Below are positions 7,637-32,900 of a stretch of 64,000 nucleotides of DNA, in pieces; the first letter of the stretch is position 1, and every line of letters begins with the position of its first letter. The DNA comes from an uncultured cyanobacterium (GTDB taxonomy: Bacteria; Cyanobacteriota; Cyanobacteriia; Cyanobacteriales; Cyanobacteriaceae). The translations under genes were made by a program, and so were the position numbers. A model generated the notes under the pieces. The model was not told the DNA's origin. It was given only the letters and a program-made list of their open reading frames with translations, and ran no database searches. The DNA lies in the NCBI GenBank assembly GCA_963749915.1, contig CAVVOP010000021.1:480001-544000 (forward strand), written 5' to 3'.

Positions 7637-7659
7637 CTTACTAAACTAATCACCAAGGA

Positions 7660-8391
7660 CTAACCAACAGCTGTATAGTTTTTCAGCCGTTTATCGGCTG
7701 CAATCCCTAAAATCTTAGCTAACCAGGGAGGTGGAGAAGTTGCCAGTGCTTTTTGTAAGTCGGCTAATATTTCTCTGGCCGAACCGCCTTGTTCTATTTT
7801 CATGGGATAGATATTAGCTTGGATGACTGTAGCGGCAGCAGGCCCACCAATGGAAACAACGTAGAGAATAGCACAATCTCTAATTAAATTAACTCGGAAT
7901 CTATTTTTTTCTTCGGCTAGATCTGCTTCTACTGCCGAGCGAACATCGATCAATTTGAGTTGGTCTGCGGATAGTTGATAAATTAAATAACGATGACAAG
8001 AACCAAAATGTCCGTCTAATTGCTCTGCATTATTGGAAGCTACAGCAATTCTAATGGAGTTAGGCAGATCTCCTTCTTGATATGACTCAATCGGTAAAGA
8101 TTCTTTATAATAGTCCTGTTCACCCCATAAGATTTGTACCGCTTCTTTGAAAGCTTTTATGTCACTATTATCCGCATCTTCGCCTTCCCATTCGTTATCA
8201 ACTTCGTAAATATTACCAAAAGATTTTTTTAATTGAGTGACTGTAATTTTACTAAGGGATTCTTGGGTAATCTCATCGTCTAGATGGATTTGCAAAGCCT
8301 CGATTAAATCCTTGATAGATACATCGGGTAATACCTTAGCCGCTAAAGCAATTCTGAGGGCGACTTCGTTGGAAATAGGTTGAGTAGTCAT
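7660..8391 (-). CDS. Dinitrogenase FeMo-cofactor biosynthesis protein (NifX/NifY/NafY family)
   Basis: N-terminal VALRIALAAK region plus C-terminal IRIAVAS...DGHFGSC...DCAILYVVSIGGPAAA...PPPWL NifX-like domain. Confidence 0.85.
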   Translation of the reverse strand: MTTQPISNEVALRIALAAKVLPDVSIKDLIEALQIHLDDEITQESLSKITVTQLKKSFGNIYEVDNEWEGEDADNSDIKAFKEAVQILWGEQDYYKESLPIESYQEGDLPNSIRIAVASNNAEQLDGHFGSCHRYLIYQLSADQLKLIDVRSAVEADLAEEKNRFRVNLIRDCAILYVVSIGGPAAATVIQANIYPMKIEQGGSAREILADLQKALATSPPPWLAKILGIAADKRLKNYTAVG

Positions 8392-8960
8392 TTCTTTACT
8401 CCTAAATTTAATTGATTGATTGAAAGGAGAATGCAGAATTTAGATTTTAGATTTTAGAATTTCAGAATTAGACATTTTCTGCATTCATTAGGGCTTAGGC
8501 AATTCAGTATAACTAAAGTAACAGTCAGCTCGATGCCCCGTCACTAAGCCTACGGGGTTCCTAACTTAATTCTCCCGATTCGACCGATTAATTTTCATAC
8601 TGTTGCTCTAGCTTAAGAAATTTATAGCAGTTAATTGTTTTTAGAACAAAACTGGGGACTCAGATTAGATTAATTAAGGTTGTACTTACAGGGTTGAAAT
8701 CTAGCCATAATAAGTTAAATTAAATTTTCTTAGGATAAGGCACGAGTATTTTTGATTAGAAGTACAGGTATTTTTAGTGGGGTTATTGAAGAAATTTATT
8801 TAAGCTCAAAGTTAATCAAGACAAGAAGATGAAGTAATTATCTGGTTGAATTGTAGAGTGATCCCTTTGTACTCGAACTCAAATTACTGCAAAAAGTCCA
8901 CCCAGTGTTACAACAAGATATAGAAGTTATCAGTTGTTAATTGTTAATTGTTAAGTCTTT

Positions 8961-10988
8961 TTATACGGAAGCTAAAACTTGAGAAGTAACTTTATCAGGT
9001 ACTTGATCTAAATGATCATATTGCCAATTAAAGAATCCTACCCCTAAACTTAGGGATCGCAATTCGATAATAAAATCTTGCATTTCCCCTTGAGGTAGAT
9101 AAGCATTCACCTGATCCCAATTTTTCCAATTGGACATAGTATCATAACCCAAAATTTGTCCTCGATGAGTACTGACCAACTGTAATACTTTAGATGTAAA
9201 TTCAGACGGTACAGATATATCTACTTGCAAAATTGGCTCAAGTAAAATCGGCTCACATTGTACCATCCCCTCCGTCATCGCAATCCGTGCCGCTTGCTTA
9301 AAGGCTTGTTCTGAGCTATCGACGGCATGATACGAACCATCGGTAAGGGTGACATCAATATCTACTACGGGATAGCCCAAAGGTCCTTGTTGTAAATATT
9401 CTCTGACCCCGGTTTCCACCCCTGGAATATACTGTTTAGGTACTACGCCGCCAACAATAGTTTGATGAAATTGGAAGCCCTCCCCACGAGAAAGAGGTTT
9501 TATCTCTAGATAGACATCGCCAAACGCCCCATGACCACCACTTTGATGTTTATAACGCCCGTGAATTTTGATGGATTTACGGATGGTTTCTTTATAAGGA
9601 ATTTTCGGATTTTTGGTAATCATCAATAAGTTATACTTATTTTTAAGCCGTTCGAGGGTGACTTGTAAATGTATTTCGCCCTGTCCCCACAAAATAACTT
9701 CATGAGTATTTTCGTCTTGTTCCCATTTCAAAGAGGGATCTTCTTCTAAAATTTTGGCGATCGCACCAGAAATTTTTACTTCATCTCGGTGATTTTCAGC
9801 GGTAACAGCTTTAGGGTAAACAGGTTCAATAATTTGAGCTTTAGGGAGAGACTTAATTTCTTGACCAGCATTTGTGAGAGTATCCCCTGTTTTTATGCCT
9901 TCTAAACGCCCTAACACTACAATTTGACCGACGCTAGCCGAATTTAGGGATTTTTGTTGACTACCCATTAACTGATAAATACCGCCAACCCTTACCCCGT
10001 TGAGGGTCATGCCATCAGTTAAATTACCTTGCCACACTCGCACTAAAGACAATCTTCCCCCCTGTGCACTATAGTAGGTTTTCAATACTTGGGCAATAAC
10101 AGTGTCCGTATCGGAAGTGAGTTGTTTTAAACCTCGTCTTTCGGCAGTTATCGTTGGTTCTGGTGCTTCTTTTATTAAACTATCTAATAATGGACGCACT
10201 CCATAATCATTTTGGGCAATACCGAAAAATACAGGGACAATCAAATCAGCACTTAAATCTTGTTTTAAATCCCTGATAATTTCTTCCTTAGAAGGCTCAA
10301 TTTCTTCTACTAATTCTTCCAATAAATGATCATCAAAATCTGCCAAAATCTCCAACATCTCTTGCCGTGCTTCGGTTTCCGCCTCTTTCAACTCATGGGG
10401 AAAAGCCACTAAATCCGCCTCGCTACCCTGATGATAATGGTAGGCTTGTTCCGTAATTAAATCGATATAACCGATGATATCTTGAGCTTTTTTGATGGGG
10501 TATTGTTGAGGTACCAGAGGACGACTAGAAACATCTTTGATAGCTTTGAGCACCTCCATGAAACTATCTTGGGATCGATCCATTTTATTGATATATACTA
10601 GGTGAGGGATTTGCCACTCATCCAAAAATTGAAATAAGGGTGCAAGGGTTAAAACTTTATTTACAGAAGGCTCACAGACGATAATAGTGCAACCAGAACC
10701 CACTAAGGCATTATAGGTTTCTTGCATAAATTCTACGGAACCTGGACAATCAAGAAAAGTAAAATTAATGCCCTTATATTCGGTATAAGCAGAGGATACT
10801 TCCACACTCATGTTACGGTTTTTTGCCTCTGGGGAACTATCACTGACGGTATTACCGTCATTTACATTACCTTTGCGATTTATCGCACCTGAAACGAATA
10901 ATAAACTCTCTAACAAAGTCGTTTTTCCAGTAGAATAAGGACCAACGATCGCTATATTTCTCATAGATATACTAGTATTTTGATTCAT
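8961..10988 (-). CDS. fusA: Elongation factor G-like protein (EF-G paralogue)
   Basis: GPYSTGKTT P-loop, DCPG, NKMD, HQSGGHG, DSSEQAF motifs; divergent cyanobacterial EF-G paralogue. Confidence 0.85.
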   Translation of the reverse strand: MNQNTSISMRNIAIVGPYSTGKTTLLESLLFVSGAINRKGNVNDGNTVSDSSPEAKNRNMSVEVSSAYTEYKGINFTFLDCPGSVEFMQETYNALVGSGCTIIVCEPSVNKVLTLAPLFQFLDEWQIPHLVYINKMDRSQDSFMEVLKAIKDVSSRPLVPQQYPIKKAQDIIGYIDLITEQAYHYHQGSEADLVAFPHELKEAETEARQEMLEILADFDDHLLEELVEEIEPSKEEIIRDLKQDLSADLIVPVFFGIAQNDYGVRPLLDSLIKEAPEPTITAERRGLKQLTSDTDTVIAQVLKTYYSAQGGRLSLVRVWQGNLTDGMTLNGVRVGGIYQLMGSQQKSLNSASVGQIVVLGRLEGIKTGDTLTNAGQEIKSLPKAQIIEPVYPKAVTAENHRDEVKISGAIAKILEEDPSLKWEQDENTHEVILWGQGEIHLQVTLERLKNKYNLLMITKNPKIPYKETIRKSIKIHGRYKHQSGGHGAFGDVYLEIKPLSRGEGFQFHQTIVGGVVPKQYIPGVETGVREYLQQGPLGYPVVDIDVTLTDGSYHAVDSSEQAFKQAARIAMTEGMVQCEPILLEPILQVDISVPSEFTSKVLQLVSTHRGQILGYDTMSNWKNWDQVNAYLPQGEMQDFIIELRSLSLGVGFFNWQYDHLDQVPDKVTSQVLASV

Positions 10989-11384
10989 AATTTCTGCTCC
11001 TAATGTGAGGGTAATTTTCAGATTAACTAATTAGGTTTTAATCCTAGAATCTTCGATTAATCAGAGTTTTGATAAAATTGGCTATATTTTCACACTAACT
11101 TATTTCTGACTTTTAGAGGTAGATAATGTTATTTATCTTAAATATTAATCAAATTGTAAAGTTTTAATTTTAATTATGAATTTTTTTTACCTAATTTTAA
11201 CAAAAATAATTAATTAACTATCAACTATCAACTATTTTTGTTTGTCACGTTACATTTAGTTTGATCATAGTTAGGGATAATATTATAGGGGTTGTGGAAA
11301 GCAGCAGGTATTTCTGTATTTTGGGACTATAACCCGAACTAATTTGTAATTGATTATCGATGAATAAACACTTGAGTAAGAAAA

Positions 11385-13082
11385 ATGAAACCATTGATTA
11401 TTGTTTCTGCATTAGGCTATACGGGATACAAAATTTATAATTTATTAAAGCTACAAGATGCCAATGTTGTTGGCATCAGCGATCGCCCTATGATCACTCA
11501 AGTTGATGATAAAATTATTGTCGGCGATTTACGCTCACCTCAAGTATTAATGGAAGCGGGAATAAAACAAGCCTGTACTATTGTGTTAGCTAGTAGCGAT
11601 GATGCCTTGAATGTGGCCATTTTGACTCAAGCAAGAATTCTCAACCCAAAAATTCGCATCGTTAATCGTCTCTATAATCATACCCTCGGGACAAGGTTAG
11701 ATCATACTTTGCCGGATCACTTTACCATGAGTGTTCCTTCCTTAGCCGCCCCTATTTTTGCCTTTGCCGCTTTAGGAAATCAAGCCATTGGCCATTTGAA
11801 ATTATTTGAACAGACATGGGCGTTGCATGAAGAAGTTATTACCGGAGAACATCCCTGGTGTGGGTTAAGTTTGGCCCGATTGTGGGATAACCTTGACCAG
11901 ATGTTGATTTATTATCTACCAAAAAATGGCGAAATGGACCTTGTTTCCGCAGTGGTGAAGGATCAAACCTTAGAATTAGGAGATCATCTAATCTTAGCCA
12001 ATAAAGCCAAAATTAACCCTAAACGTCCTTTTTTCTTGTCTCAATGGTTTAAAGCCTTTTTCAATGTCGGCACTTATAAGCAATATGCACAGTCCATAAT
12101 TATGGTGACATTAACCCTGTTAACCCTAATTTTCTTAGCGACATTTACTTATTTATGTGTCAATTGGGAAATTTCTCCAGTGGATGCCCTTTATTTTAGC
12201 GTGGGTATGATTACTGGTGCTGGGGGGAAAGAAGAAGTAGCGGAGTCCGCACCCGGTATAATTAAAGTTTTCACGGCGATTATGATGATTGTCGGTGCCG
12301 GAATTGTCGGTATTTGTTACGCTTTAATCAATGATTTCGTCCTAGGCAGTCGCTTAAAACAATTTTGGGATGCTGCTAGAGTGCCAACCAAAAATCATTA
12401 TCTCGTCTGTGGTTTGGGTAATGTGGGCATGGAAATTGTCAGGGAACTGCATCAACAAGGCCATGAAATTGTTGTTATTGAACCTGATCAGAATAACCGA
12501 TTTTTGCACTCAGTGCGATCGCTGGGTATTCCCGTCATTGTGGAGGATGCCTCTTTAGCAGATACTTTACAAGCGGCAAATATCGAAGGGGCCAACTCTA
12601 TTATCGTCGTGACGAGCAATGATATGATTAATGTAGAAATCGCCTTAACAGTCAAAGCCTTAGTGCCGAAAATCCCTGTTATTTTAAGAGTACAAGATAA
12701 TCAATTTGCTGAATCTGTCAAAGAAGTATTTCAATTTGAAAATGTTTTATCACCCACCGAACTAGCTACTCATTCCTTTGCGGCGGCGGCATTGGGGGGA
12801 AGAATTTTAGGGAACGGTATGACCGATGACTTATTATGGGTATCACTAGCAACAATGATCACTCCCAATCATCCGTTTTGTGAAAAAATTGTCAAAGAAA
12901 TTGCCACAGAGGCAGATTTTGTACCTCTTTACATATCGAGGGGAATGGATAACATTCACAGTTGGAATTTACTCAACACTAAACTAATGAATAACGATGT
13001 CTTATATTTAACCATGCCTGCTACGAAATTAGAGCAACTTTGGCGAGTTTCCCCTTCTTCTCCTTTACTAATTTCTCGTTAA
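11385..13082 (+). CDS. Potassium channel family protein with TrkA-N/RCK domains
   Basis: Two Rossmann-like RCK domains (LGYTG, CGLGNVG) flanking a two-TM pore region (DALYFSVGMITGAGG). Confidence 0.85.
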   Translation: MKPLIIVSALGYTGYKIYNLLKLQDANVVGISDRPMITQVDDKIIVGDLRSPQVLMEAGIKQACTIVLASSDDALNVAILTQARILNPKIRIVNRLYNHTLGTRLDHTLPDHFTMSVPSLAAPIFAFAALGNQAIGHLKLFEQTWALHEEVITGEHPWCGLSLARLWDNLDQMLIYYLPKNGEMDLVSAVVKDQTLELGDHLILANKAKINPKRPFFLSQWFKAFFNVGTYKQYAQSIIMVTLTLLTLIFLATFTYLCVNWEISPVDALYFSVGMITGAGGKEEVAESAPGIIKVFTAIMMIVGAGIVGICYALINDFVLGSRLKQFWDAARVPTKNHYLVCGLGNVGMEIVRELHQQGHEIVVIEPDQNNRFLHSVRSLGIPVIVEDASLADTLQAANIEGANSIIVVTSNDMINVEIALTVKALVPKIPVILRVQDNQFAESVKEVFQFENVLSPTELATHSFAAAALGGRILGNGMTDDLLWVSLATMITPNHPFCEKIVKEIATEADFVPLYISRGMDNIHSWNLLNTKLMNNDVLYLTMPATKLEQLWRVSPSSPLLISR

Positions 13083-17608: not shown

Positions 17609-17682
17609 CGGGATGTAGCGCAGCTTGGTAGCGCACTTCGTTCGGGACGAAGGGGCCGCAGGTTCAAATCCTGTCATCCCGA
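17609..17682 (+). tRNA. tRNA-Pro (CGG)
   Basis: Cloverleaf: CGGGATG/CATCCCG acceptor stem, anticodon arm CTTCG-TTCGGGA-CGAAG, T-loop GGTTCAAATCC; CCA not encoded. Confidence 0.97.
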
Positions 17683-17711
17683 TTCTAATCAAACCTGTTG
17701 TACATTATCAA

Positions 17712-17836
17712 AATCGAGGTAAATTAATCTTAGATGCAAGTTGTCCGCCAAGACAAAGAAGACCAAGAAAAGAAACCAGTAGAATTTGGGGGTAAAATAA
17801 GTGCCAGTATTTATGAAAATTTTGTCTTTTTAGATA
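17712..17836 (+). pseudogene. IS5-family transposase fragments
   Basis: Short translated pieces NRGKLILDASC and KPVEFGGKISAS..FVFLD resemble non-contiguous parts of cyanobacterial IS5 transposases. Confidence 0.6.
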
Positions 17837-18246
17837 ACTGACGTTACGCAAAGAGTCATAAATCAGGTTAAAATGACAAAATGAAACAACAACTCAAAGA
17901 ACCCTATAGTGATTATCTAATTAGTTCTTTCAATCAAGTGACTGCCACAGGCTTATCATCAGCATTGAAAGGAAATGTCAGCCATGATCAGGTGACAAGG
18001 TTTTTGTCCGGAGAAGAGATGACAAACAAACAACAAAATCGAATACTGGTTTAGCTAAATCACCAACAAAGTGTATTAAAACTCAGTGTAATCATATTTT
18101 TATGTCAATATATGCAGCGTTTCAATTAGAATGCCTAAAGATCAAGCATAAGGTCAATCATTTTGCTCTTCGGAGTCGTATTTACATTAAGGCACTCCAA
18201 GAAGCTATGACAGAGTTACAGTTGCTCAAGGCTGCGTAACATCAGT
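17837..18246 (+). mobile_element. Internally deleted IS701-family element (MITE-like, about 410 bp)
   Basis: Terminal inverted repeats ACTGACGTTACGCA / TGCGTAACATCAGT (13 of 14 match); inside, the transposase N-terminus (YSDYLISSFNQVTATGLS..SHDQVTRFL) is joined to its C-terminus (LAKSPTK..TQCNHIFMSIYA..NHFALRSRIYIKA). Confidence 0.8.
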
Positions 18247-18268
18247 GAATAAGCTGAAAAATAAACAA

Positions 18269-18298
18269 GGTGCGTTACACTTCATTAACGTACCCTAC
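18269..18298. repeat. REP-like palindrome
   Basis: GGTGCGTTA-N8-TAACGTACC followed by CTAC, typical of GTAG-type REP hairpins. Confidence 0.55.
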
Positions 18299-18302
18299 AA
18301 GA

Positions 18303-18395
18303 TATGACTATTTGGTATGTTACCCAGAAAGTTTCGTCTTTTTATCCTGTAAGGATTGACTATCAGGAAAGTTTCCGCATAATACATAGTTAGCC
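18303..18395 (+). other. Integron attI-like site, copy A
   Basis: GCATAAT-ACATA-GTTAGCC (L box, 5-bp spacer, GTTRRRY-type core at 18389-18395); two GAAAGTTTC boxes 40 bp apart; first 33 bp identical to 21191-21223. Confidence 0.8.
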
Positions 18396-18411
18396 TTAAA
18401 GGAACAAACAC

Positions 18412-19236
18412 ATGTCCCAAGATATCCCGGTACGTGAACCATTCCGAGTGCCCTTTCGTTCATTCACCCCGTTTCTGCTGATCTCGTTTGGATTGGCTTG
18501 GGGTATCCTTGGAATGTACATCCTTCTTCCAGAACGAATGGGAGCGGTGTTCGGGCAACTCACCGGCAATCACCCGCTTTTCTTCCTAGCCGTATACGCG
18601 CCTGCTATCGCAGCCTTCACTCTAGTTGTCCGCTACGGCGGATTTACAGGCCTGCGGCGCTTCTTCGGGCGTGTGTTGCTCTGGCGCTGCAGTGCTGCCT
18701 GGTACGCTTTTCTGATCATTGGCATACCTTTGATCTTCATCTGCGGTTCCTGGCTCAGGGGAAACCTTTTCACTGAACCCTTTCCATTCCCGTCCTTTCA
18801 GTCTTTGGTCGCGGCGTTGGTCCTTGCCGCAATCAAAGGCCCGATGGAAGAGTTTGGCTGGAGGGGGCTCGCACTTCCTCTTCTTCAAAGAAAGTTCGCT
18901 CCGCTCTGGGCCGGACTGATTCTTGGAGCCATCTGGGCACTTTGGCATTTGCCGGCCTTCCTGTTGAGCGGAACCCAGCAGAGCGAGTGGTCATTCACCG
19001 CGTTCTTTGCTGGATGCCTGGCGATAAGCGTCATCGTAACGGCACTGTTCAATGAGTCGAAAGGCAGCATTTTGCTGTCGGCGTTTTTCCACTTCTCACT
19101 CATGAATCCTATCTTTCCTGACGCCCAGCCCTATGACACATACCTGTTGATCGTTGTTGCTGTCCTGATCGTCTGGCGGAAACGTAATAATATGTTAAAA
19201 AGACAAGGTGCTGTAGTGGAAGTAATTTCGCATTGA
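18412..19236 (+). CDS. CPBP (CAAX/Abi) family intramembrane glutamic endopeptidase, gene-cassette ORF
   Basis: EEFGWRG and WALWHLP motifs, multiple TM segments; visibly GC-richer than host; starts about 20 bp after the core site. Confidence 0.9.
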   Translation: MSQDIPVREPFRVPFRSFTPFLLISFGLAWGILGMYILLPERMGAVFGQLTGNHPLFFLAVYAPAIAAFTLVVRYGGFTGLRRFFGRVLLWRCSAAWYAFLIIGIPLIFICGSWLRGNLFTEPFPFPSFQSLVAALVLAAIKGPMEEFGWRGLALPLLQRKFAPLWAGLILGAIWALWHLPAFLLSGTQQSEWSFTAFFAGCLAISVIVTALFNESKGSILLSAFFHFSLMNPIFPDAQPYDTYLLIVVAVLIVWRKRNNMLKRQGAVVEVISH

Positions 19237-19277
19237 AAGGCAGCCGATGGCTAAATCGACGTTAGCTATTTATTCAA

Positions 19278-19682
19278 ATGAAAACTAATATGAATGCTTT
19301 GTTCGCAAAAGCTATAGCAATTTGGTTATTAATTGCAGCAGGAGAAATATTGAATGGAAATTTCCGTGTCAGATTCCTGCATAGAAGATATGGAATAAAT
19401 CGTGCCAAGAAAATTAGTTTCTTCACGGGGATCACAATAATCTATACGATATGCTGGTATACGCTACCCTGGGTCAATCCCGCAAACTTGCAAGACTGTT
19501 TCCTGATAGGTCTGATCTGGATGCTCTTAATGCTTTGCGTTGATATTTACTTTGGAAGGTACGTATTCCGTGTCAAATGGATTAAGATATTAGAGGACTT
19601 CGATCTAAGAAAGGGTAACCTGCTTGGTATAGGCATGGGATTGTTATTTTTCTGTCCGACTATCGTATATCTACTGACTTGA
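19278..19682 (+). CDS. Hypothetical membrane protein, gene-cassette ORF
   Basis: 134 aa with about 4 hydrophobic segments; preceded by GTTAGCT and followed by an attC. Confidence 0.8.
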   Translation: MKTNMNALFAKAIAIWLLIAAGEILNGNFRVRFLHRRYGINRAKKISFFTGITIIYTICWYTLPWVNPANLQDCFLIGLIWMLLMLCVDIYFGRYVFRVKWIKILEDFDLRKGNLLGIGMGLLFFCPTIVYLLT

Positions 19683-19715
19683 AACAATACCGGCTCCTAA
19701 TAAGTGAGACCAAAA

Positions 19716-19775
19716 GGCTAACAAGGCTAATACAGCCGACGCAAAAAGGCGCGCGGCTGATTAGCGGCGTTAGCT
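19716..19775 (+). other. Integron attC site (60 bp)
   Basis: R'' GGCTAAC, L'' AATACAGC, central CGACGCAAAAAGGCGCGCG, L' GCTGATT, R' GTTAGCT; L'' has the single extra base relative to L'. Confidence 0.9.
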
Positions 19776-19778
19776 TGA

Positions 19779-20384
19779 TTGATCGATTCTAACCACACAA
19801 AACTGGTGAGTGAAATGCATAGTATAGCGGAACTTTGCGATAATCTCGTAACAGCTTATGAAGCTAAAGGGCAGGCGGTCTCTCAAAACCTGAAGCCCGG
19901 TATTTCCGAGTCTGCATATGCCAGGGCCATTGGTTTTGACCTCCAAGAGATCCCGCCTGCTGTGCTCAAGCTGTATCAATGGCGCAACGGTTGCGCCGAT
20001 GAAGAGGCTGAAGCGCTGTTTTTATTTAGAGACAACTGCTTCATCAGTGCCGAGCGAGGCAAAGAAGAACTCAACCAAATCAGAAAGTTCTATAGCGCTG
20101 ACGATGAGGATCGATTTGACCTTAGTCGCGTGATTCCCATCGCTGCTTTCGAGGGTTCAGTATTCGCAGTGATAACTGGCAAACATAACTTTGGACCTGA
20201 ACTCGAGTATCCGGTCGTCAGTATCTTTGAAGGCATTGACCTGTTGTTCAGCTCTATTGAGGCCATGTTGCATACCTGCATTGCCTGGGTCGCTCACCCT
20301 GACTGGGATCCTTATGATGCACTTCCCAGGGATGTAGAACTTGAGATTTGGAAGCGGTTGAATCCGGCAGTAGACCTGGGGTGA
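19779..20384 (+). CDS. SMI1/KNR4 (SUKH) family protein, gene-cassette ORF
   Basis: LKPGISE...IPPAVLKLYQWRNG pattern typical of SUKH domains; begins immediately after the attC; true start may be the downstream ATG (MHSIAEL). Confidence 0.75.
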   Translation: MIDSNHTKLVSEMHSIAELCDNLVTAYEAKGQAVSQNLKPGISESAYARAIGFDLQEIPPAVLKLYQWRNGCADEEAEALFLFRDNCFISAERGKEELNQIRKFYSADDEDRFDLSRVIPIAAFEGSVFAVITGKHNFGPELEYPVVSIFEGIDLLFSSIEAMLHTCIAWVAHPDWDPYDALPRDVELEIWKRLNPAVDLG

Positions 20385-20429
20385 TAGCCAATCCCGCTGC
20401 CAATCGCCACATTACATTAGTTTGTTCTT

Positions 20430-20559
20430 CAGCTAAAGTAAAGCCACCTAAAACGTTCCCCTCAAAACGGCTCAGTCTTTAAAATTACAGGGGCAGCCAG
20501 ATTGGTCAGAGAAAATTGACCAATATTTATACGAGGAAACTCTCTCCAACAATGATTGA
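20430..20559 (+). pseudogene. Antitoxin remnant (partner of downstream PIN toxin)
   Basis: Startless frame KTAQSLKLQGQPDWSEKIDQYLYEETLSNND* overlaps the vapC start. Confidence 0.55.
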
Positions 20560-20849
20560 AGTTTTTTTAGATACTTCTTTTGCGATCGCCTTATCTTCTG
20601 TCACCGATCGAAATCATGAACTGGCTGTTAAACTTGCCAATCAACTTGGGACTGACGGAAACCGTTTGGTCACAACTCAGGCGATTTTGCTGGAAATAGG
20701 TAATTCGCTTTCTAAACAAAAATACAGGGCAGCGGCAATCCAACTTTTGGAATCTCTCGAAACTGACCCCTGTGTCGAAGTCGTTTTATTAACTGACAAC
20801 CGATATCCATTTTCAGCAGGCAGGTTTTCGAGCATTGTTAAGGGACTAA
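20552..20849 (+). pseudogene. vapC: VapC/PIN-domain toxin, internally deleted and frameshifted
   Basis: MIEVFLDTSFAIAL..LVTTQAILLEIGN N-terminus; the C-terminal LTTDIHFQQAGFRALLRD* is in another frame with the middle missing; contains a HIP1 site. Confidence 0.8.
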
Positions 20850-21062
20850 TCCTCTTACATGAATCCTAACTTAGCCGTTATTTTGAAAAAAAGAGGAAGG
20901 CATTTACGATATTGAGTGCTTTTTATTTGATCTTATCTCACTGCAAATGCGAGCTTGCTTACTATGTTAACTTAGTTTTAGTGAAAAGGCGATCCCGCAG
21001 GGATCTGCTTCGCAGGGCGCATCTTTGATGCAGCACTACGCGATCGCACTGAATACGTATTA

Positions 21063-21161
21063 TCAAGAAAAGAGATAGCTTTTCTCTGTCTTATAGTAAT
21101 AATGTTTCACCCAAATTACATTTCTAACTTGTTCGAGCAATTTTTGAGGAGGTTTTGACAT
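21063..21161 (-). pseudogene. intI: Integron integrase N-terminal remnant
   Basis: Hand translation MSKPPQKLLEQVRNVIWVKHYYYKTEKSYLFS* resembles the IntI N-terminus (KLLDQVR..IR.KHYS..TE..Y); divergent from attI copy B as in canonical integrons. Confidence 0.8.
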
Positions 21162-21190
21162 AGAATGATATTCAGAAAAAGTCTTGATAT

Positions 21191-21355
21191 TATGACTATT
21201 TGGTATGTTACCCAGAAAGTTTCTGGCTATTATCAAAAAATATACGGAAAATTTCGTGATATCATTCTATATGGGTTTGATATCCAGAAAGTTTCAGCTT
21301 TTTGTGCTGTAATAGTTAGCTAGAAGGAAAGTTTCTTTATAATATATAGTTATGC
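21191..21355 (+). other. Integron attI-like site, copy B (longer version)
   Basis: TTATAAT-ATATA-GTTATGC (core at 21349-21355); four GAAA(G/A)TTTC boxes at 21215, 21247, 21287 and 21327; adjacent to the intI remnant. Confidence 0.85.
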
Positions 21356-21398
21356 CCCCCAAAAAACAACGACTATCACATCCACAATCCAAATAAAG

Positions 21399-22115
21399 AT
21401 GCGAAATCGTTTTTTGCTATCCATCTTTACACTCGCAGCTCTGGTAATTTGCACTGCGCACCGATCTGTAGCGCAGAACAAGTCTGCTAATGGCGATGTC
21501 ACATCTGCAACACTATCGGACATTGCCAATCTAATCACGTCCATTGCGCAGATCCTTTGGCCTGTGCTATTCCTGATTCTTCTTTTCTTACTCCGTCACC
21601 AAATTCGCGCTTGGTTCGAATCGGGGGCGGAAATTGCTTGGGAGTTCATGGGCAATAAGCTCGTTGTGAAGCCATCACAAGTCGTTAGACCACCAGTTGG
21701 CGAGAGTGCCGAATCTGTGCAGTTATCTGCTATTGAGTCGCGTGACCCAATACCGGTTGATTACTATTTCATAAACCACACATCCTTCCTTCGTCTGGAC
21801 AAGCAAGCGGAATTCCAGACTCGGACAGGCGTTAAAGCCCCCCACTACGATATCCGCGTGATCGTAGATTCTTACTATCGCGGTGCGTTAGACCGAGTAA
21901 AGTATGTGAAATATCTGCTACATCCAGCATATCCGGAACCAATTCAAATCCGTTCACAGGCAGCGAACAAGTTTTTGCTTAAAGAACTCGCAAATGGTGA
22001 GTATGTCCTCATCGCACAGGTGTATCTGAAAGATCGTAAAGAACCCCTCATTCTTCAACGTTATATTACTTTGTACAAAGACGGTCCCAGATTGGATATT
22101 CCGCACGAGGCATAA
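21399..22115 (+). CDS. Membrane-anchored protein with C-terminal pYEATS-like domain, gene-cassette ORF
   Basis: Signal/TM segments, then LDRVKYVKYLLHPAYPEP..FLLKELANGEY..AQVYLKD..LQRYITL; the stop codon lies inside the attC R'' box. Confidence 0.75.
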   Translation: MRNRFLLSIFTLAALVICTAHRSVAQNKSANGDVTSATLSDIANLITSIAQILWPVLFLILLFLLRHQIRAWFESGAEIAWEFMGNKLVVKPSQVVRPPVGESAESVQLSAIESRDPIPVDYYFINHTSFLRLDKQAEFQTRTGVKAPHYDIRVIVDSYYRGALDRVKYVKYLLHPAYPEPIQIRSQAANKFLLKELANGEYVLIAQVYLKDRKEPLILQRYITLYKDGPRLDIPHEA

Positions 22116-22193
22116 CCAGGCGATGGAGCTGCTATTTCGAGGTTTTTCGCTTCGTTTTAGTTTTTTCGTCGCCGCTCATCTTTGTCGTTATAC
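22110..22193 (+). other. Integron attC site (84 bp)
   Basis: R'' GCATAAC (exact complement of GTTATGC at 21349), 5-bp spacer, L'' GATGGAGC, L' GCTCATC (one extra G in L''), 6-bp spacer, R' GTTATAC. Confidence 0.9.
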
Positions 22194-22263
22194 CGCCATT
22201 TTTCCATGTACAGTGAGCTACATGTAGGCGTAAAAATTGGTTCGATGAGCAACAAGGTGATAC

Positions 22264-22733
22264 ATGAGTTTACGCGTTGAAATAGATGGGAGTTGGTCAG
22301 CGGAAGATTTTGCGCGAATGTTTGCTTCAGTAAATGACATTCTCCGCTTTGCCGATTACCGCGAAGATTGCGAGGCAGATTTGCCCTTCAACAATCTATG
22401 TTTGGCGTAAGCTTGACGAAACTGATTGATGGAGCAAATCTTGCTCGTTCCTTTGAATCTCTGGAAAGTGATGAAGGCTTAATGGTGCCCCGTTGCACAT
22501 ACGCTTCGCCAGGGGTTACAGATTTCACAGGTTTAGGACAAGCATTAGGTCATCTCAAAGACGTAATTATCAAGCTAATTGATGTCAAGGCTGCATCTCG
22601 TGAAAGAAACATAAGAAATCAGATATTGGAAGAAGAGTTACAGGCAGCCGCACTAAAAAACGTGCGTGAAAAGATAGCGATATTAAAGGAGCCCTCCTTC
22701 TGCCTTCTGCCTTTCAACTCCTGCCTTCTTTAA
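22264..22733 (+). pseudogene. Frameshifted, 3'-truncated cassette ORF (hypothetical protein)
   Basis: MSLRVEIDGSWSAEDFARMF.. from 22264 ends early; the second frame (track ORF 22368-22733) runs into host-type TTCTGCC repeats at about 22695; no closing attC. Confidence 0.6.
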
Positions 22734-22742
22734 TCATCAACT

Positions 22743-23483
22743 TTATGGGCAATTTTCAGATTCTGTGGTTTTTACTTCTACTTTTTCATAACCTGCAATT
22801 TGCATTAATCGACTAATTAAAATTACTGCTTTTTCGTTGGCCTGATCTAAGATTTTTTGCTGACAAGCGGTTTCTTTTATTTTTATTAAAGTTTGACGCT
22901 GTGCTTGGGTTTGTAATTGTGGGGCCACATCAGGGCCTAAGTTGAGAAAACCTCGGTCGTAATCATACACTTGGGATTGATTGACGTCTATTTTTTCCTC
23001 AATAATTTCTGGTGCTGGTAATGTGATTTTAAGTTTATTTCCGTCAATGAGAATATCTTTAGCCCTCATGTTACTTAAATCTAATCCTGCTTTTACCTCT
23101 CCTCTGGCTACATAAAGTAAATTTGTTTTGCCGATGACGATATTACCCAATTTACGACTAGATGAAGTTGGCACAATAGCATCCATGACAAACTTTATGG
23201 TGGTTAATTCACTAATGGCTTGAACTTGTTTGACAATTAAATGAGGGTTATTGATTTGTGGGGGGGTAATTTCGTGATCAATAATCTGGATTATCCCCTG
23301 TAAAGTGTTATGTGCACTCTTCCAAACTCCCAATACACCGAAAAGAATTATCAAGGTTAAACTGCTGGTCATCAAAGCAGTGTTTTTCAACAGCCGGGAA
23401 CTGAAAATAAATGGTTTAGAACTGTTCATCAAAAGAAAAGGATACTTTTTGCAATTCTGAATATTATAACTGAGACTTTGCAT
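22743..23483 (-). CDS. DUF4230 domain protein
   Basis: TM anchor, ELTT, GEVKAGLDL, ITLPAPEI patterns. Confidence 0.8.
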   Translation of the reverse strand: MQSLSYNIQNCKKYPFLLMNSSKPFIFSSRLLKNTALMTSSLTLIILFGVLGVWKSAHNTLQGIIQIIDHEITPPQINNPHLIVKQVQAISELTTIKFVMDAIVPTSSSRKLGNIVIGKTNLLYVARGEVKAGLDLSNMRAKDILIDGNKLKITLPAPEIIEEKIDVNQSQVYDYDRGFLNLGPDVAPQLQTQAQRQTLIKIKETACQQKILDQANEKAVILISRLMQIAGYEKVEVKTTESENCP

Positions 23484-23649
23484 CAGTACAAAAATTGACC
23501 GTATTCGTCAACAAAATCAGTAACTACCTTTGAGTAGTAAAATATTTGAAGAGAATTAATTACCAAGCCCTATTAAAATAAAAACTTGCTAATTAGACAA
23601 TATAAATTGATTAAGTTCTCTGTTCTAAGGGAATATATACTGAACTTTT

Positions 23650-24504
23650 ATGATAACCGAAAAAATTTTTGGCAAAAAAAATCCTGTTATTGGTGTCGTT
23701 CATTTATTACCTTTACCGACCTCCGCTAGGTGGAGGGGCAGTTTACGGGCAGTAATGGAAAGGGCTGAACAAGAGGCTACAGCTTTAGCCGCAGGGGGTG
23801 TTGATGGTATTATTATCGAAAATTTTTTTGATGCACCTTTTACTAAAGATAATGTAGATCCTGCTGTGGTTAGTTCTATGACTTTAATAGTTGATCACAT
23901 TATGAGTTTAGTCATGTTACCCATTGGCTTAAATGTACTGCGAAATGATGCTAAAAGTGCTTTGGCGATCGCCTCCTGTGTTGGTGCAAGTTTTATTCGG
24001 GTAAATGTCTATACGGGAGTAATGGCAACAGATCAAGGTTTAATTGAAGGAAAAGCCCACGAAGTCCAACGATATCGTCGAGAATTGGGGGATGATATCG
24101 CCATTTTCGCCGATGTTTTAGTGAAACACGCCCGTCCTTTAGGTACTCCTAATTTAACCACTGCGGTACAAGATACCATTGAAAGAGGTTTAGCTGACGC
24201 AGTAATTTTATCAGGATGGTCAACGGGGTTACCTCCTAGCATAGAAGATTTAGAATTAGCACAATCCGCCGCCAAAGGTACACCAGTATTTATTGGTAGC
24301 GGTGCTACACCGGAAAATATCGCCGATTTGATGACTTTTGCTGACGGAGTGATTGTCTCAAGTTCCTTAAAACGTCATGGTAAAATTAACGAAACCATTG
24401 ATCCCAGCAGGGTTTCACGGTTTATTGAAGCGGCACAAACTCCCATAGCTTCCCCCGAGTCTGCTTCTTCTCCCGCCACAAAAACAGCTGATCAAGCCTC
24501 ATAA
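23650..24504 (+). CDS. btpA: Photosystem I biogenesis protein BtpA
   Basis: IGVVHLLPLP, IENFFDAPF, NVLRND, DVLVKHA motifs. Confidence 0.93.
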   Translation: MITEKIFGKKNPVIGVVHLLPLPTSARWRGSLRAVMERAEQEATALAAGGVDGIIIENFFDAPFTKDNVDPAVVSSMTLIVDHIMSLVMLPIGLNVLRNDAKSALAIASCVGASFIRVNVYTGVMATDQGLIEGKAHEVQRYRRELGDDIAIFADVLVKHARPLGTPNLTTAVQDTIERGLADAVILSGWSTGLPPSIEDLELAQSAAKGTPVFIGSGATPENIADLMTFADGVIVSSSLKRHGKINETIDPSRVSRFIEAAQTPIASPESASSPATKTADQAS

Positions 24505-24558
24505 TTAAACTGTTAAAATTCAGATAAACATTAATTTAATTCTCTATAGATAATCATT

Positions 24559-25566
24559 ATGCTTCGTCGTCGTCGTAACCTGCCTTGGATTCAGCGCAAA
24601 TCTCGATTTATCATTGGTACGATCGCCATTGTCGGTTTAATCTTAACCATCTATCTAACTATTATCAAACTAATGGGAGGAGATGTTGCTTGTACTGCTG
24701 ATGCCGCCGGTGGCTGTGATAGCGTGTTAAATAGTTCTTATGCTTATCCTCTCGATCCTCAAGGTAAAACAGGCCCACCTTTGAGTATATTCGGTTCATT
24801 AGCTTATCTTAGCATGGCTATGTTTGCCTTAACCCCTTTATTTATTAACCCCGAAAAAAACAAAGAATTAAGACAAAAATTAGAAAAATCTACCTGGTGG
24901 CTAATGCTGGTGGGTAGCTTTACTATGGCGGCTTTTAGTCTTTATCTAATGTATGTTTTAGCCTTCAAAATTCAAGCAGTATGCCCTTATTGTATTGGTT
25001 CAGCGTTATTTTCCTTGACTTTGCTAACATTAACTATTGTTGGTCATGATTGGGAAGATATGGGACAAATTTTATTTACAGGAATGACAGCGGTATTGAT
25101 TACTCTCGTTAGTGCGGTGGGAGTTTACTCTAATGTTAACACCGTAGTGACAGAAGATCCTGCCGTAGAGTTGGCTGCCGGGGAAAAAATACCAGTTCCT
25201 CAAGCACAAACAGCACCACAACCGCCTTTGGGGTGGGATATAACTACTACTTCAGGAGAAGCTGAAATTTCTTTAGCAAAGCACTTGGCTTCTAAAGGTG
25301 CAGTAATGTATTCTGCTTATTGGTGTCCTCATTGTTACGAACAAAAACAGCTTTTTGGCAAAGAAGCATTTAAAGAAGTTGGTAAGATAGAATGTGATCC
25401 CAAGGGTATTGCACCTGCACCTCAAAAATGTGTGGATGCTAAAATTCGAGCTTTTCCTACGTGGATTATTGATGGGAAAATTCATGAGGGTGTGCAAACT
25501 TTGGACCAATTGGCAAAATTAACTGGTTATACTGGCGAGATGAATTTTAAATACACAATGCCATAA
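24559..25566 (+). CDS. Vitamin K epoxide reductase fused to thioredoxin-like domain
   Basis: VKOR TM domain with CPYC and C-terminal WCPHC Trx domain. Confidence 0.92.
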   Translation: MLRRRRNLPWIQRKSRFIIGTIAIVGLILTIYLTIIKLMGGDVACTADAAGGCDSVLNSSYAYPLDPQGKTGPPLSIFGSLAYLSMAMFALTPLFINPEKNKELRQKLEKSTWWLMLVGSFTMAAFSLYLMYVLAFKIQAVCPYCIGSALFSLTLLTLTIVGHDWEDMGQILFTGMTAVLITLVSAVGVYSNVNTVVTEDPAVELAAGEKIPVPQAQTAPQPPLGWDITTTSGEAEISLAKHLASKGAVMYSAYWCPHCYEQKQLFGKEAFKEVGKIECDPKGIAPAPQKCVDAKIRAFPTWIIDGKIHEGVQTLDQLAKLTGYTGEMNFKYTMP

Positions 25567-25584
25567 TCAATTAACAATTAACAA

Positions 25585-26751
25585 TTAACAATTGCCAATT
25601 CTTCCCCAATGTAATTTCTTTTGTTGATTATCCCATTGCCAACGGATTAAATTAGCGGGGGAGTTTACCTGTAAAGTTGGCAAATTAATAGCTTTACGGG
25701 GTGCATCAGTGACAAGAGCGATCGCCTGTTCTACATCACAAATACCCCATTTAACCAAATTTTCTGCCCCGACCAATAAGGGTAAAGTAGTGCCAGATAA
25801 TGTGCCATCAGGTAATCTAGCAGTGCCGTTTTTTACCTCAATAGTGCGCTCATCCCAAGGGTAAAAACCTTCAGATAATCCTATGGGCGATAAAGCATCA
25901 CTCACTAAAAAAATCCCCTGCTGATAATTGCTAGCTTGTAAAATTAGCTTTAACATCGTCCGACAAACATGATTACCGTCAGCGATTAAACCACAATAAA
26001 CATAGGGATTAATAATGGCTTCACCTAATAGTCCGGGTTGCCGATGATGAAGGTTAGGCATGGCATTAAAAGCATGTGTTACCATAGAAGCACCTTGCTC
26101 AAAAGCATCCTTAGCCTGTTGTGCCGTTGCCAGAGAATGCCCTAAACTAATGACAATACCCTGAGAATGTAAAAAGGGAATAACGTCTCCCTTGGTGTCT
26201 AATTCTGGTGCAAGGGTGATAATTTTAACAATATTAATATATTCTCCCAAAACTTGTTTAACATTATCTAAAGTTAGGGGTAGTAAATATTCCGCAGGAT
26301 GAGCTCCTCTTTTATCATAATTTAAAAAAGGTCCTTCTAAATGAACGCCAATTATTTTCGCTTGTTGAGGTTTTTTGGGTAAATTTATATGCTCATTAAT
26401 TACCCTTAAAGATTGATGAATTTTTGTGATTGAAGTTGTCACGATAGTGGGTAAAAATTGATCGACTCCCACTCGCCATAAATAAACACAAATTTCCTCA
26501 AGTTTATTCAGATCTTCAAGGGTTAAGTCGGGAAAAGCTAGCCCTAAACAGCCATTAATTTGTAAATCTACCCCCCCTAAGGAAAGCCAATCACTTTGTA
26601 AATCTAAATCCCCTTGAGGACATAAATTAGTATCTTTTATAGAAGTAATTAAATTATTTTCAATGGTGATAGTCTGTAAATTTTCATAACCAATTAATCG
26701 GGCATTGGTGATAGCTTTAGTAATAATCTTTTTAACTGCCATATTTTCCAT
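25585..26751 (-). CDS. nagA: N-acetylglucosamine-6-phosphate deacetylase
   Basis: DLQING, HLEGPF, RGAH, THAFNAM, IADGNHV motifs. Confidence 0.93.
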   Translation of the reverse strand: MENMAVKKIITKAITNARLIGYENLQTITIENNLITSIKDTNLCPQGDLDLQSDWLSLGGVDLQINGCLGLAFPDLTLEDLNKLEEICVYLWRVGVDQFLPTIVTTSITKIHQSLRVINEHINLPKKPQQAKIIGVHLEGPFLNYDKRGAHPAEYLLPLTLDNVKQVLGEYINIVKIITLAPELDTKGDVIPFLHSQGIVISLGHSLATAQQAKDAFEQGASMVTHAFNAMPNLHHRQPGLLGEAIINPYVYCGLIADGNHVCRTMLKLILQASNYQQGIFLVSDALSPIGLSEGFYPWDERTIEVKNGTARLPDGTLSGTTLPLLVGAENLVKWGICDVEQAIALVTDAPRKAINLPTLQVNSPANLIRWQWDNQQKKLHWGRIGNC

Positions 26752-26925: not shown

Positions 26926-27429
26926 ATGATCGAAATGAAGGTAGCGGCAATAGCTTTAGATGCTGTGACTCGCAGTCCTATAGTACTTTTAAAGGATGCT
27001 ACTGGGCGCCGTGCCTTACCAATATATGTAGGGCAAGATCAAGCCAGATCTATTATTGGAGTATTAGAGCAACAACAACCCCCTCGCCCTATTACTCATG
27101 ATTTGATAGTTAATATCTTTTCGGCTTGGAATTTAAAATTAGATAAAGTTATCATTAACTCACTACAGGACAACACTTTTTATGCTTTATTATGTATGAA
27201 ATTGGGCAAAAAAGAGAAAAATATTGATTGTCGTCCCAGTGACGCGATCGCTATTGCTGTGCGTACAGGATGTCCGATTTGGGTAATGGAAGAAGTGCTT
27301 TTAAATGCTTCGATTCCCGTCGATAGAGAAGCGGATGATGAAGAAAGAGAGGCTTTTCGGGATTTTGTCGCCAATTTAAGTCCAGAAGAACTAATTCGCC
27401 GTGCCAGAAAAAGCAGTGAGGAAAGTTAA
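26926..27429 (+). CDS. Bifunctional nuclease family protein (DUF151)
   Basis: LPIYVG, PPRPITHDL, DCRPSDAIAIA motifs. Confidence 0.9.
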   Translation: MIEMKVAAIALDAVTRSPIVLLKDATGRRALPIYVGQDQARSIIGVLEQQQPPRPITHDLIVNIFSAWNLKLDKVIINSLQDNTFYALLCMKLGKKEKNIDCRPSDAIAIAVRTGCPIWVMEEVLLNASIPVDREADDEEREAFRDFVANLSPEELIRRARKSSEES

Positions 27430-27467
27430 CAATTAACAATTAACAATTAACAATTAACAATTAACAA
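27426..27467 (+). repeat. Heptamer tandem repeat (TTAACAA)x6, STRR-type
   Basis: Six exact copies; shorter runs of the same unit occur near 8935, 25570, 50320 and 58700. Confidence 0.9.
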
Positions 27468-27529
27468 TTTTAAGGGGATGATGAACTTGATATTTATGCT
27501 CTTGAAGATGGAGAACTGATAAAATTAAG

Positions 27530-29934: not shown

Positions 29935-32900
29935 TTAGGGAGTGAATGTGATTAAAAAAACAGTGCCTTGATTATTGGTATCCACTGATATTTCAGCGTC
30001 TAATTGTTGACTTAATAATCTTACTAATCTTAATCCTAAAGAGTTATTTTTTTCCCAGTCTAAATCTGGCGGTAATCCGATACCATTATCTCTTATTTCC
30101 AATTTTACCCTTTCTTTCTCTTCTACTTCTACTGCCAAATTAATGGTAACTTCTCCTTCTCCCGTGGGAAAAGCGTGTTTAAAGGCATTGGTGACTAATT
30201 CATTGATTAATAATCCGGCTGGAATGGCGGTTTCAATACTTAAATGACATTCTTGTAAATGGGTAACGGGTTTGATGCCTGTGTGATAGTGGTTATAGGA
30301 AAGAAACAAATTGGATACCAATTGATTAATGTAGTCGGCAAAATTGATCTCAGAAAGGTCATTGGATCGGTATAATTGTTCATGAATTACTGCCATTGTC
30401 TGAATCCGATTTTGACTGTCTTGAAAGAGGTCTTTTACCGCTTCGTCTTCTACATAACTAGATTGTAAATTCAGCAATCCGGAGATAACATATAAATTAT
30501 TTTTTACCCGATGATGGACTTCTTTAAGTAAAATTTCTTTTTCTTGTAAAGATTTAAACAGCTTTTCTTCCGCTTGATGTCTTTCCGTTACATCCGTAGA
30601 AATACCATCAATGCTTACTGCCCTACCGTAATGATCATACACGATATGGGATCGTTCTCGAATCCAACGAGTATCCCCTGTAGATAACTGAATTTTATAT
30701 TCTAACTCCCAGTTTTTACCATAATCGTTTTGTAAAATGCCTAACTCGTAACTTTCCATAATATCCGCCCAAGTATTTTCTACTAATTGACGGTATTCTG
30801 GTACTACCATCTCTAATAAAATACCTCGATTGGCTAAAATATCCGCTGGAGAATAACCATATAATATTTGGCAAGCAGGGTTGATATAACGTGGCTGTAA
30901 ATCTGGTAATGACATTGACCAAACTACGTCTTGCAAAGAACTTAATACACTATTCAATCTGGCTTCACTCTGCTGTAAAGAGGCTTCTGCTTGTTTGCGA
31001 TCGCTAATATCATTAATTACAGCTATAAAGTAAGAAGGATCAACAGCGACCCATACCACCGACATAGTTAAGTTAACCCACAAAAATTGACCATCGGCAC
31101 AACGAATACGAATTTCCCTTTCAAAAGTGGCATGATAACCAGCTAATAAACCTGATAAATCCGTGAGAGTAGGGGAAACATCGTCGGGGTGAATTAAGGA
31201 ATGAAAATCTACACCCACTAACTGATCACGAGTATAATCCATTAATTGGATAAATTTATCGTTAACTAATACTAGCTTACCAGGTAAACTCACTTGTACA
31301 ATACCTACCGCCGCCTGATTGAAAATGCTACGAAAACGTTGTTCACTTAATTTTAATCGTAATTGTGCCAGTCTAACTTCTTCGATGTCTTGTCCACAGG
31401 CAATAATACCAATTCCCTGACCATGATTGTCCGTGAAACGGTTAACATTCCATAACAATGTCCTCTCATCACCATTGGCTGTTAAGATTTTATTCTCTAA
31501 ATTTCGTTGAACTGTTCCGACCTTTAAAGTTATATTTAATTTATCTCTCAAAATATCTCTTTGATCAGGGGCAATAAAGAGTAGGAAATAGTCCTCCCCT
31601 AATACCGAGTCTCTTTGCCAACCAAAGACTTTTTCCGCTTCCTCGTTCCATTCCAGGATACGATATTCCTGATTAAGTACCACTAAAACAGTCCCCGCCG
31701 TTTGTACAAATGTCCTTAATTGGGTGGTAGTTTGTTCTAATTCTTCCGTGCGATCCTTTACCCTTGTTTCTAACTCCTCATTGAGACTACGCAATTGAGA
31801 TTCTGCCTGTTTTGCAAGAGTTATATCTCTAGCAACGGCGTAAATAATGCCTTCTTCATAGGGGAGACTTTTCCACGCCAACCAACGATATTGTCCATCG
31901 TTTGTTAACCAACGATTCTCGAAATTGACACTAGGGAAACCACTACTCAATTTTTCTAACTCTTGTTTCGTGATTTCTACATCGTCAGGATGCACAAAGG
32001 AAAGTACATTATGGTCAACCATCTCCCTTTGCGTATAACCCAAAGTCGTCAGAAAACTGGAATTAACCCGTTTAAATGAGCCATCGTTTCCCATAATACA
32101 AAACATATCCAGAGAAAGATTAAAAAAGTAGCTCAATTGTCGTTGGGTTCGACTGCGATCAATAGCCGTAGCTAAAACATTGGCAACGGTTTGTAAAAAA
32201 TTAATTTCTTCGGGGGTAAATTTACGGGAAATTTGACTATAAATACCCATAACACCGAAACAATTTTCCTTGCCTCCAATGGTCACCGTTGCACCACTAA
32301 CAATTCCCGTATTATGTAAGAACGGAGAAGGACTGAAACGGGTTTCTACGAATAAATCCTCTGTCATCACGGGTTGCATCATGTTAAGAGTATAACCTGG
32401 CATCCAACGGGGAGATGAACCAATTTGTGCTAGTCCTATCCAATCTGATAACCAACCTATCCCTGCTTTGAGTAAAAAAGAGGCATGATTCGATTGCAAT
32501 TCCAACAAGTCACAATACTTCACTTTTAGTGTGTCGCTGACAATCTTAACGGTGGTATTCATCAAGGTGTTTATGTCATTGCTGATTAAGGCCGTATTTC
32601 CTAATTTGGCAATAGCAGTCTGATATTCGGCTACTTGTAAGGCTTTTTGAGCATATTCCGACTGTTGAATGGCAATGGCTACTTGTGAGCCTAGTTTTTG
32701 TAATAATTCTAATTCATCTTCCAACCATTGACGGGGTTGAAGACAATTTTGTGCCGCCAATAACCCCCAGAGTCGATCATGAAAAATAATAGGTACAACT
32801 AAGTTAGCCTGTATTTGTATCCCCAACAATAAATCCAGATGACAGGGAGACAGATTTGCCGTGAAAACATTATCTACCGCCTGAATCCTCCCGTTAAGAT

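Follow-up and report, generated by a model that had tools for sequence, protein, structure and literature searches.

Two tandem attI-type platforms without an intact integrase gene at a cassette locus of an uncultured cyanobacterium

The integron integrase IntI inserts circular gene cassettes by attC x attI recombination at a G|TT crossover. The locus described here (18303..22733) lies in a 64-kb window, the whole stretch of DNA that was analysed, on contig CAVVOP010000021.1 of an uncultured cyanobacterium whose genome assembly comprises 34 contigs. It holds two noncoding leaders on the same strand, each followed immediately by its own array of cassettes, and between them a remnant of an integrase gene (Table 1). 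Homologous leaders were found to recur in the same genome and in many other cyanobacteria, often with no integrase gene beside them.

The two leaders share an identical 33-bp block (18303-18335 and 21191-21223). Leader 1 ends in the attI-type simple site GCATAAT-N5-GTTAGCC with the crossover G at 18389, and leader 2 in TTATAAT-N5-GTTATGC with the crossover G at 21349, so that both features named by the original prediction, which was made from the DNA letters, are confirmed. The leaders are built from imperfect 21-bp palindromes at -180, -140, -108, -68, and -28 from the crossover (offsets in locus L061), the right arm of the last palindrome being the L box of the simple site. The layout of leader 2 matches the DNA upstream of intact IntI genes in two genomes (L061 and L064). 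Across 79 homologous loci, 122 additional palindromic units lie upstream at recurring offsets and none downstream. For 27 leaders with a simple site, the mean pairwise identity is 0.59-0.80 across the 30 bases 5' of the G (0.80 at -10..-1) and 0.65 over the core, and then 0.25-0.28 beyond +10; the alignment is anchored at the site itself, which makes the drop beyond the GTT its informative part. Judged by these comparisons, both leaders represent the intergenic region that separates intI from attI in a clade of cyanobacterial integrons. The prediction had taken them for attI platforms with captured cassettes and had proposed in advance to look among homologues for a breakpoint at the GTT and a link to intI. 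Both were found, the homologues adjoining intI and losing similarity just past the GTT, and the attempt at refutation thus failed.

A different origin of the leaders as promoter or operator repeats of a host regulator, with cassettes entering at chance attG-type genome sites, is very improbable. IntI is described, in the available text of one preprint, to insert cassettes at non-attI genome sites (bioRxiv 10.1101/2022.09.11.507474), the units are palindromic, so that a host protein may bind to them, and leader 1 holds a sigma-70-like promoter match (TTGACT-16-CATAAT, 18356-18383, 10/12). Against this, the leader is the region upstream of intI in intact integrons and the cassettes start at one fixed base; an attG-type insertion would have its junction in ordinary genome DNA, and both junctions lie in conserved attI.

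The R'' box of the first intact attC in each array complements the core at the platform junction, as predicted, over 9 bp in array 1 and 8 bp in array 2. By free energy, the predicted attC hairpins held up for attC1, which folds far better than its shuffled versions (z -4.9, 0/200 as good), and not for attC2. Because attC2 was no better than shuffles by this measure, a covariance model was built from 20 attC sites in integron arrays of other genomes, collected with a box-pairing heuristic and including none from the window. In the model, 89% of the cells pair and 16 of the 22 pairs have changed on both sides, which 0/500 shuffles reach. The top match in the window is attC1 (bottom strand, 43.7 bits, E 9.5e-9) and the second is attC2 (bottom strand, 36.9 bits, E 5.4e-7), so both hairpins are recovered by a model trained on other genomes. 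Failure of an attC covariance model on the two hairpins was the other refutation that the original prediction had proposed, and it did not occur. The next unrelated match (18.2 bits, E 0.038) lies at 32821-32899 on the minus strand inside a sensor-kinase gene and probably arose by chance. A genome-wide attC search scored 150 of the 801 candidates and missed attC1, so that its count of at least 9 matches is a lower bound. The sequences of both junctions are most likely explained by insertion of the gene cassettes at the G|TT by an integron integrase.

The open reading frames (ORFs) behind the leaders have GC contents of 0.53, 0.38, 0.49, 0.47, and 0.43 compared with a genome mean of 0.375, which bears out the description of them as mostly GC-richer. 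Cassette A could be delimited independently. In a 3373-bp contig from a groundwater metagenome, the sequence 18389-19766 recurs with 45 differences (~97% identical), the match starting exactly at the crossover G after 1972 unrelated bases, and a vent metagenome contig covers 18389-19614. These contigs, from four runs, served solely to locate cassette ends, and the small word shares of the runs are not habitat evidence. A joint from 21268 to 18324 in metagenome contigs is explained by the similarity between the leaders. The best relatives of the CAAX gene are from Desulfobacterota and other non-cyanobacteria (76-94% for the top 30), and no DNA of cassette A turned up in 300 further genomes from the phylum. 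Locus L391 matches cassette A at 91% over 18389-19721 and carries the same collapsed attC, a remnant which the original prediction had overlooked, and loci L396, L413, and L426 have a full attC right after the CAAX gene at that place, suggesting that cassette A was fused before it arrived.

The protein of cassette B has no Pfam match, and the pYEATS protein of cassette C has 225 relatives at E<=0.001. For cassette D, the covariance model found no closing attC in the window, and its best Atlas score of 0.89 is a lead only. A PADLOC and NCBIfam search of the window cassette proteins returned no match except weak CAAX families.

Table 1. Features of the cassette locus and its immediate surroundings (window positions)
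Feature	Position	Strand	Description
tRNA-Pro(CGG)	17609..17682	+	Neighbour of the island
Fragments of two DDE transposase genes	17707..18252	+	Sit where intI would be
Short dispersed hairpin repeat	18269..18302	.	Abuts leader 1; 4 other copies, 88-94% identity
attI platform 1 (putative)	18303..18391	+	Two palindromic units (starts 18321, a unit-2/unit-4 hybrid from a 72-bp deletion between repeats, and 18361) plus simple site; G|TT 18389|18390
Cassette A	18390..19769	+	One fused two-gene cassette
Cassette A, gene 1	18412-19236		CAAX/Rce1-like protease, PF02517
Cassette A, collapsed attC	19249-19267		19-bp remnant
Cassette A, gene 2	19278-19682		134-aa membrane protein
attC1	19716..19775	+	60 bp
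Cassette B gene	19779..20384	+	SMI1/KNR4 (SUKH)-like protein; Atlas score 0.95 to PF09346 clusters
Candidate degenerate attC half	~20383-20405		After cassette B gene; visual reading alone
Truncated PIN-domain (VapC-like) gene	20516..20869	+	PF01850, profile positions 1-75 of 120; between the arrays
Octamer GCGATCGC	21040..21047	.	~20 bp beyond where the intI remnant ends
intI 5' remnant	21066..21161	-	32 codons followed by two stops; divergent relative to the array; adjoins leader 2
attI platform 2, full length (putative)	21162..21351	+	Five palindromic units (starts 21169, 21209, 21241, 21281, 21321) plus simple site; G|TT 21349|21350
Cassette C	21350..22187	+	Membrane-anchored pYEATS-domain protein (21399-22115), PF20305 above cut-off
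attC2	22110..22193	+	84 bp
Cassette D	22188..22691	+	Broken gene, no assigned family; ends in dispersed repeat 22692-22735

The window was predicted to contain no intact integrase, which is correct; the remnant of 32 codons had been overlooked, and platform 2 is therefore not a bare attI. With intact cyanobacterial IntI as tblastn query, the coding part of the remnant is matched at E 5e-7 to 4e-4, and at 1.7e-14 when the upstream frame is included. The octamer beyond its end is known as HIP1. No intact intI was found among the 14 tyrosine-recombinase matches across the 34 contigs, where the best TIGR02249 score is 62 bits against a cut-off of 265. The only other intI remnant of the genome lies beside a platform on contig C22 (156729-157246, L018), which has all five units and an intI cut by two internal deletions into ~46, 42, and 20 residues; the first cassette there opens with a gene cut inside its ATPase domain. 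The transposase fragments next to platform 1 have BLASTN relatives on contigs C8, C16, C32, and C34 of the same genome, longer copies of which match DDE_Tnp_1_2 above and DDE_5 below the cut-off.

Of the features of a complete integron, the locus has a G|TT simple site upstream of intI with cassettes starting at the TT, and cassettes closed by attC, and it has no intact intI adjoining attI. Two attC within the 4-kb threshold of PMC4889954 (19716-19775 and 22110-22193) with no intact intI nearby make it an attC site cluster that lacks an integron integrase (CALIN) by definition, one that retains two attI platforms, and not a complete integron. Taken alone, the locus is a decayed integron pair.

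The pair is not unique: its two platforms are 2 of 7-8 in this genome, the 5-6 others having been missed by the original prediction, and other cyanobacteria have tandem pairs as well. A profile made from 11 leaders of other genomes found 7 leader copies, and a short copy on C31 was added by BLAST and a weight matrix. Five platforms have a complete simple site, compared with at most 1 match in a shuffled genome at comparable thresholds, and 5/8 are followed by a co-oriented attC.

The original prediction had explained the locus by local tandem duplication of one platform, followed by divergence and independent cassette capture. The identical 33-bp block speaks for this, as do the duplications with shared flank in 3/5 of the tandems in other genomes, and a shared flank of leader 1 could have been erased here, where insertion sequence (IS) fragments overwrote it. 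However, the block is a conserved part of the leader family and is 30-32/33 identical in five other copies of this genome. Over 90 comparable bases, leader 1 shares 75 with leader 2 and 78 with the C22 copy, and over the last 57 bases it shares 42 with leader 2, no more than with several copies from other genomes (41-44). Local duplication is therefore not established, and we regard it as improbable.

Several further sites of this genome are described here in their own right. The leader at C21:212869-213869 (L020) ends after unit 2 and joins a TTAGGC, which complements the R'' box of an attC at 213812; its cassette begins at its own TT despite the loss of the simple site, and the junction suggests an integrase-made deletion or insertion within the leader. 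The small contig C13 (917-3935, L021) carries a short platform (unit 1 and a 2/5 hybrid) with a broken type I-like restriction-modification cassette and a perfect match between R'' and core. At C8:875834-879600 (L017), the DNA next to a truncated platform is a 2.6-kb patchwork copy of contig C23 with its tyrosine recombinase and ParA-like region, indicating that platforms move together with plasmid-like DNA; the cassette gene has a weak gasdermin-domain match below the cut-off (E 0.003). Single attC sites without a detected leader are found at C22:232747-234726, C21:194930, C21:611343, and C23:15134, the first of which closes a GmrSD-domain gene starting shortly after a GTTATGT core. The flank common to the C8, C13, and C21 (213 kb) platforms was considered as an eroded intI, a reading which was dropped because other contigs, and one congener, have the flank with no leader attached.

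A 31-letter pattern ending at the GTT gave at least 120 matches, 80 of which are listed, 75 of these in records titled cyanobacteria. With one mismatch allowed, the pattern occurs in 50/401 genomes of the phylum (99 sites; 1 match for the reversed control), 23 of the 50 having more than one site. Within 1.5 kb of the 80 listed sites, intI is intact and adjacent in 6 cases, broken or partial in 22, and not seen in 52. The unselected bases after the GTT resemble a cassette core (A 66, G 54, G 40, C 49 of 79-80). Near the listed loci, the attC model has 31 matches in 29 loci, with 30 downstream and co-oriented, 1 inverted, and 0 upstream. When the first attC of each locus is taken and the inverted one excluded, the four variable core bases are the complement of the R'' box of the next attC in 20/28 loci, compared with 2.8 after shuffling (P<1e-4). 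Directly behind the platforms of L028, L038, L055, and L064 lies a short, apparently ORF-less stretch ending in attC. The same attI signature is present in records titled Chloroflexota (L184, L201, L213, L313, L315, L319, and L331), and in L201 an intact intI adjoins the site.

When flanks of 10 kb are included, a second site is present in 5/78 distinct listed loci, in each case co-oriented and at a distance of 1.0-4.8 kb, whereas the per-genome counts lead one to expect 0.4-1.2 tandems (roughly estimated Poisson P 7e-5 to 9e-3). Three of these tandems have partners with a common upstream flank, which is 82% identical over 605 bp in L272, 78% over 561 bp in L284, and 95-96% over 293-383 bp in L344. 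The last locus, from the record of Microcystis ichthyoblabe FBCC-A1114 (complete chromosome, 7136-12340), has three platforms within 3 kb. They are 96%-identical copies, in each of which one shared IS-like left end truncates intI at codon 3, and their first cassettes are three different ones. The pattern matches this chromosome 8 times, and intI fragments but no intact intI were found on it. Near-identical copies without intI and with different first cassettes suggest that loading takes place in trans. Together, the comparisons demonstrate the integron origin of these platforms, their fixed crossover point, the mobility of the cassettes, the loss of intI, and the multiplicity and recurrent stacking of the sites.

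A contrasting account, in which plasmids or transforming DNA repeatedly bring in small complete integrons that take up cassettes with their own intI and later lose it by deletion, so that inert remnants pile up in an insertion-rich spot and no loading in trans takes place, seems unlikely to us. It leaves the near-identical intI-less copies with different first cassettes unexplained (L344, and also L272 and L284), as well as the co-orientation of this tandem and all 5 others. In its favour, decay of intI is common, about 1/3 of intI genes being reported as pseudogenes in the available text of one study (PMC2426708), and a set of 301 genomes from the same order includes 25 with an IntI match above the TIGR02249 cut-off and 44 with a match at E<=1e-40. 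It also agrees with the different intI remnants in the window and at the C22 platform, with an island full of IS fragments, with leaders 1 and 2 not being sisters, and with the flank shared between three platforms of this genome and a small contig carrying a tyrosine recombinase and a ParA-like ORF.

The reading that we favour, at a probability of roughly 0.6 and from sequence comparison, is that the locus consists of two tandem attI platforms, one with and one without a 32-codon intI remnant, that IntI inserted their cassettes at the G|TT, and that the platforms were copied after the loss of intI and loaded in trans. The platform would outlive its integrase gene in cyanobacteria and would be copied with whatever flank it has, such as an IS end or a plasmid or gene fragment. 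Copies would tend to land next to an existing platform and co-oriented with it, probably via recombination between the repeats they share, and each copy would likely be loaded by the IntI of another integron in the cell or of incoming DNA, natural transformation being one possible supply route for cassettes. A role as accessory IntI-binding boxes is predicted for the phased palindromes, and the last unit probably also supplies the -10 element of a cassette promoter, which is the proposed reason why short platforms are kept. A TATAAT at -11..-6 is present in 38/80 listed homologues, part of the hexamer being fixed by the search pattern. As the genome now stands, the locus would stay fixed in its present state until the arrival of an intact intI. 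Tentatively, and at somewhat less than even odds, the solo palindromic attI can be seen more broadly as a non-autonomous multicopy element that discards intI, gets copied into head-to-tail stacks, and receives its cassettes through visiting integrases. We put forward with the same reserve the part of this proposal that describes the cassettes as foreign, derived from other phyla, and in several cases defence-like.

A number of observations weigh against the favoured reading of copying and loading in trans. Loading of the two platforms may have preceded the decay of their own intI. The tandem partners in L287 and L334 are unrelated, so the tandems are not all duplications. The leader promoter search gave 9 sites, with 9.6 expected by chance; leader 2 has no qualifying promoter site at the crossover, the -35 is not conserved, and a conserved -35/-10 promoter across the leader family was rejected as unsupported. 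By free energy, 170/200 shuffles of attC2 fold as well as the site itself (z +0.97). Behind the C22, C21 (102 kb), and C31 platforms, no attC was found. Finally, the 80 sites in 78 distinct loci are the first of at least 120 matches and not a random sample, and draft contigs hide tandem partners and integrases.

The tRNA-Pro gene beside the island, which the original prediction had seen as the site of the gene-capture locus, was rejected as an integration site. No duplication of its 3' end was found within 17690-26000 beyond two 9-mers, and no tRNA lies within 1.5 kb of the homologous sites (0/80 listed; the positive control was found). The genes flanking the locus are not syntenic in relatives, and in none of the 17 relatives with a match did SNF2 turn up within 1.5 kb of the DUF4230 gene, so that no empty site can be defined. 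Tandem 7-bp repeats of the TTAACAA type occupy intergenic DNA of the window at 25549-25600 and 27418-27483.

For a large group of cyanobacteria, the locus provides an attI signature that can be searched (50/401 genomes, 1 control match). As far as the available text goes, little description exists of attI sites outside class 1, and IntegronFinder does not search for them (PMC9024848), which is why the origin of integrase-less cassette clusters stayed open. The locus is an entry to a widespread pattern of solo, multicopy, stacked attI sites and makes the origin of CALINs testable. If attI is a non-autonomous element, it would give a concrete origin for many CALINs and for many single attC sites lacking an integron integrase (SALINs). 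If the platforms are loaded in trans, integrons in this phylum would form a distributed network of docking sites and not one platform per array, and cyanobacteria would have a defined route to take genes from other phyla. A portable attI working without a linked intI could also serve cyanobacterial engineering.

The complex class 1 integron In104 keeps one intact intI1. As described in the text available for SGI1 (PMC7056807), In104 resembles the present locus in having two attI in one locus, each with a cassette array. It differs in being a class 1 integron on a mobilisable island with resistance cassettes, whereas here the attI are built from palindromes, no intact intI is present, and the arrangement recurs chromosomally in several genera. 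A class 1 platform is defined by the attI1 L box with DR1/DR2 and by intI1; here a different L box, palindromic units, and a remnant of a cyanobacterial IntI are found. The attI1 site, of 65 bp with L/R boxes and DR1 and DR2, has the 5-bp spacer, the G|TT crossover, and extra repeated boxes upstream in common with the platforms, and uses these upstream boxes for IntI, according to the part of the source at hand (PMC12901181). Unlike attI1 with its two direct repeats, the platforms extend to ~190 bp and contain as many as five inverted-repeat units spaced 40/32/40/40 bp apart, the arm of the last palindrome is the L box, and the number of units varies by deletion between repeats. The Delta-attI-type gene cassettes covered by the same text (PMC12901181) likewise place attI-derived sites within an array, and those recombine with IntI1; there, a truncated attI replaces attC at the cassette end, whereas here whole platforms, including the leader upstream and an intI remnant, head new arrays.

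Cyanobacterial integrons, frequent intI pseudogenes, several integrons per genome, and CALINs have been published (PMC4889954, PMC2426708, PMC8618304, each in the text available), and natural transformation is described to supply cassettes to chromosomal integrons (PMC12614218, likewise). The literature searched, in which subscription papers are sparsely covered and IntegronFinder supplements may list such loci as CALINs, contained no description of a cyanobacterial attI, of its palindromes, or of a multicopy intI-less attI. The closest published counterparts are the CALINs and SALINs (PMC4889954; bioRxiv 10.1101/2022.09.11.507474), with which the locus shares two attC 2.4 kb apart, short arrays, and the lack of an intact intI nearby, none having been found in the genome either. 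In the accessible text of those surveys, attI outside class 1 were not searched and ~95% of the CALINs are not near intI pseudogenes; the present locus differs from the clusters surveyed there in that two platforms are present and each array keeps a recognisable attI.

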